Shown piece by piece: positions 5,211 through 9,757 of a stretch of 64,000 nucleotides of DNA; the stretch's first letter is position 1, and every line of letters starts with the position of its first letter. The stretch lies in the IMG/VR virus record IMGVR_UViG_3300025362_000477; one strand, given 5' to 3'. The position numbers and the translations under genes are program-made. The stretch is from a virus (lineage: Duplodnaviria > Caudoviricetes). Under the pieces are notes generated by a model. It saw only the letters and a list, made by a program, of their open reading frames with translations, was not told where the DNA came from and searched no databases.

Positions 5211-5619
5211 TGGTGGCTATGTCTTCATTCCTATCGGTCCCATCAGTATTCTCCTCAATCTCGTTAAGTATTGTTTCATCTATAAATCCATTTTCAAGTG
5301 CTGAGATATAACAATCATCATCAACAATATCATCTTCTTCATCAAAAATTCCTGGATATTTCTTTTTAGCTTCTGAATACCATTCGTCCTGAGACTTATT
5401 ACATGCAGAATGTTTTTCATTCATCACAGTATACAAAGCTGAGATCTTTAATTGTAATTCTTCAACCTTAACACTTTTCTGTGATACACTAAGTTTATGT
5501 TCATCTAAAAATGCCTGAGTTTCAATCTGTTGTCTTTGGAATTCCTTCTCTACATCACATAATTGCTCATATGTTAAATCTTTATATTGTTCTCGTGCTC
5601 GATCTAATACTTTAGACAT
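5170..5619 (-). CDS. hypothetical acidic coiled-coil protein
   Basis: ORF track, GGAG RBS. Confidence 0.6.
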   Translation of the reverse strand: MSKVLDRAREQYKDLTYEQLCDVEKEFQRQQIETQAFLDEHKLSVSQKSVKVEELQLKISALYTVMNEKHSACNKSQDEWYSEAKKKYPGIFDEEDDIVDDDCYISALENGFIDETILNEIEENTDGTDRNEDIATSGNGSKTTKIRRD

Positions 5620-8203: not shown

Positions 8204-8280
8204 TGGCACGCCAAGAGGGATTCGAACCCCCGACCGACGGATTAGAGATCCGCTGCTCTATCCAACTGAGCTACTGGCGT
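8204..8280 (-). tRNA. trnR: tRNA-Arg(TCT) with C33
   Basis: Cloverleaf, A20 in D-loop, loop TCTCTAA, CCA. Confidence 0.9.
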
Positions 8281-8326: not shown

Positions 8327-8590
8327 TTAACAAGTGTACCAATCAGCAATATAATCGGGATTTGAATCTAGAAAATCTCTAAGAGCTAAAACAGCCTCTT
8401 TATACCAATGATTTACACATACAAATTCTCGATCTTCTGAACCGTTGTACAATACCAGACAATGATCATCTTCATTTATTACTGATTGACCACCGTATTG
8501 ATCTTGTAATACGATTAGAGGTGAACCATAACGATCAACATCCCAATTCTTTGGTGTCTCGTCTACTACTTTATACATATCATTTCCCAT
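8327..8590 (-). CDS. hypothetical protein
   Basis: ORF track. Confidence 0.55.
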   Translation of the reverse strand: MGNDMYKVVDETPKNWDVDRYGSPLIVLQDQYGGQSVINEDDHCLVLYNGSEDREFVCVNHWYKEAVLALRDFLDSNPDYIADWYTC

Positions 8591-8602: not shown

Positions 8603-8640
8603 ACTTAGACTCGTTCGCTCGCCACTACTAAAGTCTAAGT
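8603..8640 (-). ncRNA. hairpin displaying a 23S rRNA-like segment AGTAGTGGCGAGCGAACG
   Basis: Perfect 9-bp stem 8603-8611/8632-8640; loop matches a conserved LSU rRNA motif recalled from memory. Confidence 0.55.
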
Positions 8641-8661
8641 ATCTATCAGGTGGACCTGATA

Positions 8662-9399
8662 TTAATTATCATCTGGAACATCATGTACGATCGGTGCACA
8701 TGGATTCAAGCTAGTGGATGCACTGACACCCACACATTTATGATTTTTGATCTTTTCTATACCTTCCGCCATAACGTCGCTCATAGTTGATGTATCATCT
8801 ACTGGAACATCAGCATCTGCATCCAATATACCATCAGCCATAGCTTGCTCGATTACAGAAGGTTTCTGTGATTTACAAGTACAGCATCCACAACTACATT
8901 TCTTTTCTTCATAATTATCATCAACAATCTCAGCATCATCATATAACTCAAAAGTAAACTTAGTATTTTCAAGTCGTAGAGGTTTTGATTCAATTAGATT
9001 GTATGCAAAGATAATGTTCAGAATAGTTGGAACATTTGCAAAAGGCAGTATTGCAATGTAAGAAATATCCACGTCACATGGATTTGGCTCAGATTCTTTT
9101 GATTCCGCCATCAATTTTTCAAAATCTCTAATCCGGCGAAGACAATTAACTTTACCTTCAGCCTTACAGAATGAATCTTTAGGACTACAGAAAGAGAATG
9201 CGGCAACCAAATAATTCCCATTTCTAATTCGTTTCGTTACTGCTGTCACATAATAGCCCCGTGGAGCCTTGTAATAAGAGAATCTAAGATCATCCATATC
9301 ATGGTGTGATAGAAGTTCTTTAAGTTCAGTTTTTCTGATCTCAGAAGGTTTTGGCTTTTTCTCATATTGAGTGCCATTAATATTTTTATCATTTTCCAT
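8662..9399 (-). CDS. hypothetical protein (FSFCSPKD.F.K.EG motif)
   Basis: ORF track; start revised to MENDK (RBS AAGGA). Confidence 0.6.
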   Translation of the reverse strand: MENDKNINGTQYEKKPKPSEIRKTELKELLSHHDMDDLRFSYYKAPRGYYVTAVTKRIRNGNYLVAAFSFCSPKDSFCKAEGKVNCLRRIRDFEKLMAESKESEPNPCDVDISYIAILPFANVPTILNIIFAYNLIESKPLRLENTKFTFELYDDAEIVDDNYEEKKCSCGCCTCKSQKPSVIEQAMADGILDADADVPVDDTSTMSDVMAEGIEKIKNHKCVGVSASTSLNPCAPIVHDVPDDN

Positions 9400-9412
9400 T
9401 TGTATTTTCCTT

Positions 9413-9661
9413 TTATAATTGTTCATTTTCTGATGATAAACTTTCTTTCCATTCATCAGCCATGTGATCAGATATCCATTTTAACATGGCTTCTATCACA
9501 CCTGAATTATCAGCTAGGAAATTAGTTAATGCAGTACCACACACATCACCATCATAACCCATGTCTTCACATAGCTGACTTAGATTTGATACTCCAGTTT
9601 CACATTCCCAACAATGGAATCCTTTATCATTCATATATTGTTCTAATATTTCGAGACTCAT
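9413..9661 (-). CDS. conserved phage hypothetical protein
   Basis: ORF track, AGGAG RBS. Confidence 0.6.
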   Translation of the reverse strand: MSLEILEQYMNDKGFHCWECETGVSNLSQLCEDMGYDGDVCGTALTNFLADNSGVIEAMLKWISDHMADEWKESLSSENEQL

Positions 9662-9674
9662 TAATCTCCTTTAA

Positions 9675-9757
9675 TGGAGCTAAGGATGGGATTCGAACCC
9701 ATGACGTAGAATTTCAGTTTTGCAGACTGACCCGTTCAACCACTCCGGCACCTTAGC
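9675..9757 (-). tRNA. trnC: tRNA-Cys(GCA) with enlarged variable region
   Basis: Loop CTGCAAA, U73, CCA; 11-nt variable region. Confidence 0.9.

Follow-up and report, generated by a model that had tools for sequence, protein, structure and literature searches.

A hairpin in a phage tRNA array copies helices H12/H13 of 23S rRNA and may act as a free-standing mimic of the ribosomal E-site wall

The hairpin, its neighbourhood and its match to 23S rRNA

The DNA analysed here (the window) is a stretch of 64,000 nucleotides from the IMG/VR virus record IMGVR_UViG_3300025362_000477, which comprises 141.5 kb with 32% GC and has a CheckV completeness of 44%. In the window, which corresponds to the minus strand of this record, small ORFs are scattered through an array of minus-strand RNA genes, namely 22 tRNA genes and one tmRNA gene. 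Within this array and on the same strand, between tRNA-Cys (9675-9757) and tRNA-Arg (8204-8280), lies a non-coding hairpin, placed in a 71-nt gap that separates the ORF at 8662-9456 from the ORF at 8327-8590. The features of the locus are as follows:

8204..8280, minus strand: tRNA-Arg(UCU), the next array tRNA downstream of the hairpin
8327..8578, minus strand: downstream gene for a conserved 83-aa acidic protein, with the true start at ATG 8578-8576 and not at 8590
8603..8640, minus strand: hairpin copying 23S rRNA H12/H13, 38 nt, by sequence, fold and score with the R1 model (see below)
8614..8629, minus strand: 16-nt core of the hairpin, AGUAGUGGCGAGCGAA, equal to 23S 241-256 (natural variant C246U)
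8645..8660, minus strand: upstream 6-bp hairpin ATCAGG-UCCA-CCUGAU (DNA ATCAGG-TCCA-CCTGAT), one base past the TAA stop of ORF 8662-9456
8662..9456, minus strand: upstream gene P0002, 264 aa as the longest ORF, with its TAA stop at 8664-8662
9675..9757, minus strand: tRNA-Cys(GCA), the nearest tRNA upstream of the hairpin

Read along the minus strand, the gap consists of the TAA stop, the 6-bp hairpin (8660-8645), AGAU and then ACUUAGACU-[UUAGUAGUGGCGAGCGAACG]-AGUCUAAGU (8640-8603). An earlier note on this DNA had described, within 8603-8660, a perfect 9-bp stem accompanied by a second hairpin at 8645-8660, and both its description and its coordinates were correct. The 38-nt hairpin is built, on the minus strand, from the 5' arm ACTTAGACT (8640-8632), the 20-nt loop TTAGTAGTGGCGAGCGAACG (8631-8612) and the 3' arm AGTCTAAGT (8611-8603). 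Positions 8640-8632 pair with 8611-8603 in the perfect 9-bp closing stem, and U8631·G8612 forms a tenth pair (G·U). The smaller hairpin at 8645-8660 has no equivalent in the contexts of the other family members, and it is probably the 3' end or a stability hairpin of the upstream message. No promoter or terminator was called beside the 38-nt hairpin on the minus strand, and the hairpin itself, with its 20-nt loop, was not called as an intrinsic terminator. Note that the U-rich tail that follows it, UUUCACUUUUU, is absent in the other members.

Neither of the flanking gene products matched a Pfam or PHROG family. P0002 has one homologue, P0014, which is 39% identical. On the other side of the hairpin, the longest ORF starts at 8590 and encodes 87 aa; all of its homologues are 80 to 83 aa long, and their start matches the third ATG, at 8578; the sequence just ahead of this ATG is GGGAAAUGAU, where relatives have GGAGAAUGAU. 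From these comparisons, the longest-ORF start at 8590 is probably wrong. Thus, the distance of 12 nt reported previously is accurate for the first ATG (8590) but not for the true start, since the homologues use ATG 8578, which is 24 nt away. The product of this gene is acidic and is not a ribosomal protein.

Searches with P0001 and P0002 found no close relatives in IMG/VR. Relatives obtained from the protein database carry the neighbouring genes and lack the hairpin, so this element would be either dispensable or recently acquired. In these relatives, what lies ahead of the homologues of the 83-aa gene is a GIY-YIG gene, an AAA gene or an unrelated spacer, and never the hairpin. Since a GIY-YIG gene occupies in relatives the place that the hairpin occupies in the window phage, the junction is a variable hot spot. 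At L042:2745-3008 (and in L043-L051) the homing-endonuclease gene (GIY-YIG) extends over the start of the 83-aa gene. In another relative, the P0002 homologue is followed by a stem-closed structured RNA of about 115 nt (L228:1655-1775) that is different from the hairpin, which suggests that RNA modules are swapped at the position downstream of P0002 homologues. This RNA is followed by a tRNA-Arg(UCU) with a group I intron (L228:1776-2030; Rfam 84 bits).

The hairpin contains an 18-mer, AGTAGTGGCGAGCGAACG, which was aligned to an annotated E. coli 23S and equals positions 241-258 in 17 of its 18 bases. The sole difference, C246T (C246U), is a natural 23S variant, present in the true 23S fragments L025, L029 and L034. 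The 16-nt core of the 18-mer had been recognised in the earlier note as a highly conserved segment of LSU domain I, and the alignment bears this out. The core comprises the AGUA/GAA flanks, a 2-bp helix (G-C and U·G) and a GGCGA pentaloop with G248-C249. The E. coli 229-269 segment folds as ((((((.....((.....))....)))))), and the fold of the phage hairpin has the same architecture, in which the closing helix is followed by 5 nt, the 2-bp helix capped by GGCGA, and 4 nt. When the sequences are compared, AGUA (8629-8626) and GAA (8616-8614) read as the sarcin-ricin (bulged-G) consensus. AGUA/GAA is the canonical sequence of the sarcin-ricin motif, a recurrent and self-contained 3D motif (PMC1865062). 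The 20-nt loop is probably a compact and not an open structure.

The similarity to 23S ends with this element. The flanks aligned to 23S no better than shuffles did (58/300 and 104/300), a BLAST search against the E. coli rrn operon returned the 18-mer only, and Rfam produced no match of any kind at the hairpin, with no LSU match even at E<=10. These comparisons with 23S and Rfam were those proposed in the earlier note, and they agree with its view of a 23S helix mimic on a novel stem, with a native-like architecture and flanks that are not 23S-like. Judged by its sequence, the hairpin is an isolated copy of H12/H13 on a foreign stem and not an LSU rRNA gene or a fragment of one. As in native H12/H13 (E. 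coli about 235-262), the 16-nt core is identical (but for the natural variant C246U), has a 1-nt spacer on each side, and is predicted to combine the closing helix, the inner 2-bp helix and the GGCGA pentaloop in the same way. Unlike the native element, the phage copy is a solitary element within a tRNA array, it lacks rRNA-like flanks, and its closing stem, which is unrelated in sequence, is longer than any of about 100 native stems sampled.

The 18-mer is unique in the window even when 3 mismatches are allowed, and none of 100 shuffles gave a match; both the 16-nt core and the R1 model found one copy in the 141.5-kb record. A perfect 9-bp stem is unremarkable in this genome, since the 141.5-kb record has 172 nested matches, or about 70 distinct hairpins, with loops of up to 40 nt, and the folding z-score of the hairpin is only -1.75 to -2.4. 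Its significance resides in the loop and in the recurrence of the loop in other phages, not in the stem. Other short rRNA matches (16S 1043-1057, 23S 2010-2023 and 16S 1-13) were rejected as chance matches; they lie in coding-like sequence without stems.

Recurrence in other phages

An exact-motif scan with AGTAGYGGCGAGCGAA against 2.9 million viral contigs (IMG/VR) returned 39 loci, 8 of which are true 23S fragments. Part of this list is due to chance, since a 16-mer is expected tens of times in a collection of such size. Several of the 39 loci, which fall within long open frames on GC-rich contigs, are probably chance matches of this kind. The match in the cultured Halobacterium phage ChaoS9 was also discarded as chance, because it has A at the Y position and no stem.

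In a further group, mostly AT-rich contigs of large phages, the loop is in non-coding DNA and is closed by perfect stems that are unrelated to each other. These stems have 13-14 bp in L027, 10 bp in L020, 7 bp in L005, 6 bp in L035 and L015, and 5 bp in L008 and L016. The scores for a perfect flanking stem were 13.5 (L027), 10 (L020), 7 (L005) and 6 (L035), compared with a null from random positions in the same loci that gave P(score>=6)=0.026 and P(>=9)=0.002. Native closing stems, taken from about 100 true rRNAs, score at most 8. Since these native stems also covary between taxa, a different stem alone is not diagnostic; the extended phage stems are unusual. The native sample came from a metagenome scan with an AT-rich prefix, which retrieved mostly genuine AT-rich or organellar LSU rRNAs together with three more phage-type cases.

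We built a covariance model, R1, from six members, and the window hairpin, as one of these six seed sequences, scores 51.2 bits with it (E 4e-11). The R1 family was defined by the loop N-AGUAGYGGCGAGCGAA-N closed by at least 5 Watson-Crick or G·U pairs. The window hairpin belongs to this family, with 10 pairs, the position and orientation within a tRNA array, a non-coding location and a single copy. Among 23 non-coding phage members in the R1 alignment, each of the inner 5 bp of the closing stem is formed by at least 90%, through as many as 6 pair types, and pairing overall reaches 82% of cells, compared with 34-41% when the partner column is slid; note that the alignments used for covariation are biased to structure, A4 having been chosen for stems and A6 fitted to the model. 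Members were found via the loop sequence, so that conservation of the loop is partly a matter of ascertainment.

Variants found without the exact-loop requirement change the inner helix and keep GGCGA in every case. L208, L197, L222 and L224 carry AGUACUGGCGA(G/A)GGAA, in which the G-C pair of the inner helix is replaced by C-G, and L227 carries AGUAGUGGCGAACGAA. In L197, L224 and L227 the U·G pair is replaced by U-A. The existence of homologues with compensatory stem changes was the test that the earlier note had set for its own claim, and such homologues are present in other large phages.

The family is associated with tRNA genes. In 14 of 14 loci with nearby tRNAs (the window, L002, L005, L015, L016, L018, L021, L027, L031, L038, L117, L197, L208 and L227), which represent about ten independent lineages, the motif is in the orientation of the tRNAs. 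Two tRNAs of L027 are 106 nt apart, and the hairpin takes up most of that gap; in L005 the hairpin lies 25 nt after a tRNA. The chance or coding matches of a control motif have no tRNAs nearby. Most family members are in or beside tRNA arrays, and those examined adjoin tRNAs or are inside larger RNAs. Six genomes, of which two are complete with terminal repeats, were checked for copy number, and the motif occurs exactly once in each. No protein genes are common to the neighbourhoods of the carriers except those for homing endonucleases (GIY-YIG/NUMOD) and thymidylate synthase, and Rfam searches of the window region and 16 related loci found nothing at the motif.

Two other signals were seen at these loci. 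L016:12687-12763, which lies between tRNA-Met and the tmRNA and 300 nt downstream of the L016 H13 hairpin, matches the type-P5 twister ribozyme with 38 bits, just above the gathering score. An apparent colinearity of L002/L018 with 23S 213-311 was rejected, since it failed the shuffle test when the motif was excluded.

Other scaffolds and other copied 23S elements

In some phages the H13 hairpin is mounted on larger RNAs. In L008 (and in the metagenome contig L163) it occupies the D-loop of a tRNA-like RNA of about 175 nt, which in L008 has an 8-bp acceptor stem and a canonical T arm. In L004 and L014 the hairpin takes the place of the anticodon loop in tRNA-Leu-like RNAs. The tRNA-like RNAs with an H13 hairpin, identified by acceptor stem and T arm (ACAGGTTCGAATCCTGT), are:

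L008:8063-8237, tRNA-like RNA with the hairpin in the D-loop
L004:931-1078, tRNA-Leu-like RNA with the hairpin in place of the anticodon loop
L014:140-300, tRNA-Leu-like RNA with the hairpin in place of the anticodon loop

These three RNAs also hold further uncharacterised hairpins.

A different scaffold is found at L208:5073-5484, which Rfam scores as a tmRNA (74 bits, E 1e-28). This RNA carries, in addition to the variant H13 hairpin, the loop of 23S H11 (GAACUGAAACAUCUAAGUA) on a hairpin 30 nt after the H13 copy:

L208:5296-5335, variant H13 hairpin
L208:about 5359-5392, H11-loop hairpin

Both copies occupy the usual site of the 3' pseudoknots of bacterial tmRNA, and their order, H13 and then H11, is permuted relative to 23S. 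L197:124-230 is a second locus of this kind.

The H11 loop corresponds to E. coli about 189-207. A scan with a 16-mer of this loop had been meant as a negative control; it returned phage contigs in which the loop forms an isolated hairpin on a foreign stem, in some cases next to tRNAs, and the 16-mer was rejected as a clean control because it is itself mimicked. The H11-loop hairpins, which have unrelated stems of 5-9 bp, are:

L184:9436-9451, H11-loop hairpin
L192:2791-2806, H11-loop hairpin
L193:9030-9045, H11-loop hairpin
L202:1322-1337, H11-loop hairpin
L213:4402-4417, H11-loop hairpin

No H11-loop hairpin was found in the genome of the window phage. The H13 copy is followed closely by an H21-like segment in L038 and L015 (3/300 and 5/300 shuffles, respectively), and a scan for the H21-like segment of L031/L038 gave no loci beyond L031 and L038. 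As a separate observation, CUA-anticodon tRNAs (amber suppressors, called 'Pyl' by ARAGORN) are present in the window phage (5641-5714) and in other carriers of rRNA-loop hairpins (L005:7865-8019 and L213:8144-8218).

The copied site and the possible role of the hairpin

In the ribosome, the tips of H13 (G248-C249) and H21 (G386), together with the base of H88, surround the 50S E-site pocket, which receives C75-A76 of the deacylated tRNA, as seen in a 2026 cryo-EM study (PMC13372681). bL35 contacts H13 and H88, with bL28 alongside (PMC13372681), and both proteins join late in 50S assembly (PMC9935924). We found no bL35 or bL28 gene in the 141.5 kb of the window phage genome, which is 44% complete, and no bL35 gene in five other carrier genomes.

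Our results indicate that the hairpin is probably a selected mimic of H13. Since the copied pentaloop forms part of the E-site pocket and is contacted by bL35, we propose that the phage RNA would imitate this surface off the ribosome. The hairpin would be transcribed with the tRNA array, from the same strand, as a stable RNA, and would act in trans and not as the leader of the next gene. The loop would fold as it does in the ribosome, with a sarcin-ricin-type turn made by AGUA/GAA, the 2-bp helix and the GGCGA pentaloop, and the longer, phage-specific stem would hold this H13-like fold. The mimic could then capture, or compete for, whatever recognises the H13 surface. By analogy only, the simplest candidate partners would be bL35, bL28 or the RNA partners of H13 in 50S assembly, or alternatively a factor of host or phage origin that targets the E site. 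That the hairpin works as a decoy or competitor is a tentative proposal to which we would give somewhat less than an even chance. Note that the H13 hairpin alone cannot rebuild the whole E-site pocket, for which H21 and H88 are also needed. Taken as a whole, a selected, free-standing copy of H12/H13 that acts in trans as a mimic or decoy of the E-site wall is the best explanation that we have, with a likelihood that falls just short of even.

Several other explanations have to be set against this one. The hairpin could be an autonomous folding or stability module, that is, a compact, nuclease-resistant building block with no ribosomal partner, which would serve to protect or punctuate tRNA-array transcripts and to stand in for loops or pseudoknots of the tmRNA and tRNA-like RNAs. 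We consider this improbable, while acknowledging that the H13 copy is found on very different scaffolds, including the site of the tmRNA 3' pseudoknots, that AGUA/GAA is a self-contained motif which recurs in 3D structures (PMC1865062), and that the syntenic slot of a relative holds a different stem-closed structured RNA. However, such a module would not need all 16 nt of one particular rRNA hairpin, nor an invariant GGCGA tip on closing pairs that covary. Moreover, copies of the H11 loop and of H21, which are neighbours of H13 in domain I of 23S, accompany it in some phages, and this joint occurrence argues for imitation of a specific ribosomal surface. A role as cis-acting regulator, in which a factor bound to the mimic in the 5' UTR would control translation of ORF 8327-8590, had been suggested in the earlier note and now seems very unlikely. 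It is true that the conserved start follows the hairpin at a distance of 24 nt and a weak Shine-Dalgarno-like GGGA follows it at about 15 nt, and that rRNA mimicry in the leaders of ribosomal-protein operons is established textbook knowledge; but the hairpin does not overlap the ribosome-binding site, the homologues of the downstream gene occur in relatives without it, and the encoded protein is acidic, has no family match and is not a ribosomal protein. The other members examined also argue against the leader role; they are beside or between tRNAs or inside larger RNAs, with no conserved distance to a start codon.

Even less probable is a functionless relic or coincidence, either a decaying scrap of host rDNA or a chance 18-mer beside a chance inverted repeat. 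Nine-bp inverted repeats are common in this AT-rich genome, tens of chance 16-mer matches are expected in IMG/VR, some of the matches being clearly coding, and the close relatives lack the hairpin, all of which would fit this explanation. Against it, the flanks retain no residual 23S similarity and yet the hairpin is perfect, with a stem longer than the native ones; in independent phages the loop recurs on perfect stems of unrelated sequence, and its orientation is always that of the tRNAs; compensatory variants exist; and the family-level statistics are already contrary to it. In addition, a captured piece of rDNA would not give the permuted H13-H11 order seen in the tmRNA. The least probable explanation of all is that the sequence acts as DNA, as a mobile-element end, a homing-endonuclease target or some other palindrome. 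It is favoured by the GIY-YIG endonuclease gene found upstream of the 83-aa gene in relatives and by GIY-YIG/NUMOD being the only gene family common to several carrier loci, but no endonuclease gene adjoins the hairpin in the window, the strand bias with the tRNAs is strict, and the G·U pairs, like the compensatory changes, are meaningful only at the RNA level. There is a single copy in each of the six genomes examined, and this, with the lack of an Rfam match and of any Pfam/PHROG family in the neighbouring ORFs, also speaks against an IS200/IS605 end, a REP or a MITE; the IS200/IS605 end palindrome was the alternative named in the earlier note, and it is unlikely.

Returning to the trans-acting mimic, the collection of scaffolds raises the more doubtful idea that large phages hold a toolkit of free-standing copies of the E-site wall, comprising the H13, H11 and H21 loops. 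Such copies might be mounted as bare hairpins, on tRNA-like scaffolds or in the phages' own tmRNAs, and might act away from the ribosome as decoys or adaptors whose target could be a host factor, a ribosomal protein, or a defence or antibiotic directed at the E site; the 38-nt hairpin of the window would be the minimal form. We regard this combined proposal as speculative and rather unlikely to hold in all its parts.

Imitation of rRNA is known from the leaders of ribosomal-protein operons, such as those for L20, L1, S8, S15 and L10, which are cis-regulatory, are located on the mRNA of the bound protein and usually mimic the shape of the rRNA more than its sequence. As in these leaders, a non-ribosomal RNA here reproduces a protein-binding rRNA element; unlike them, the phage hairpin is a copy in sequence, has no link to a ribosomal-protein gene and is not conserved with the downstream gene. 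To our knowledge, the only known use of rRNA mimicry is cis-regulation on the mRNAs of bacterial ribosomal proteins, and our literature search found no description of phage rRNA-hairpin mimics or of the 23S motif itself in this role. Imitation of rRNA is known as a kind; what is new, as far as can be told, is the free-standing phage form, the copied site and the scaffolds. The tRNA cluster of phage T4 also encodes species 1 and 2 (bands C and D), stable small RNAs that have no known function and that resemble the hairpin in being non-tRNA RNAs in a phage tRNA cluster, on the same strand; we know of no sequence relation between these RNAs and the hairpin, nor of any reported rRNA mimicry by them.

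If the proposed role is true, a phage copy of an E-site element acting in trans, the more so one that recurs in unrelated large phages and on tRNA-like and tmRNA scaffolds, would be a new viral way to interfere with translation, for example by titrating a late-assembling ribosomal protein, by blocking assembly of the host 50S subunit or by absorbing an agent aimed at the E site. It would also provide a function for some of the unexplained non-tRNA RNAs in phage tRNA clusters. Being very small (about 40 nt), the hairpin is an easily synthesised probe for the recognition of helix 13.

Finally, the Y RNAs (YrlA) of bacteria and phages mimic tRNA and are bound by Ro60/Rsr. The hairpin family is comparable in that a small RNA imitates an RNA of the translation machinery and some H13 copies are on tRNA-like scaffolds; it differs in that there is no YrlA match at the hairpin and the H13 copies imitate rRNA, not tRNA. 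No TROVE (Ro60) gene was found in the 141.5 kb of the window phage, a genome 44% complete, so that its absence is unproven. Among five carrier genomes, only one, the complete 172-kb genome with a tRNA-like H13 scaffold, has a TROVE match, which is borderline and belongs to a 547-aa open frame at L220 (G004:50735-50950), 47 kb from the H13-carrying RNA.
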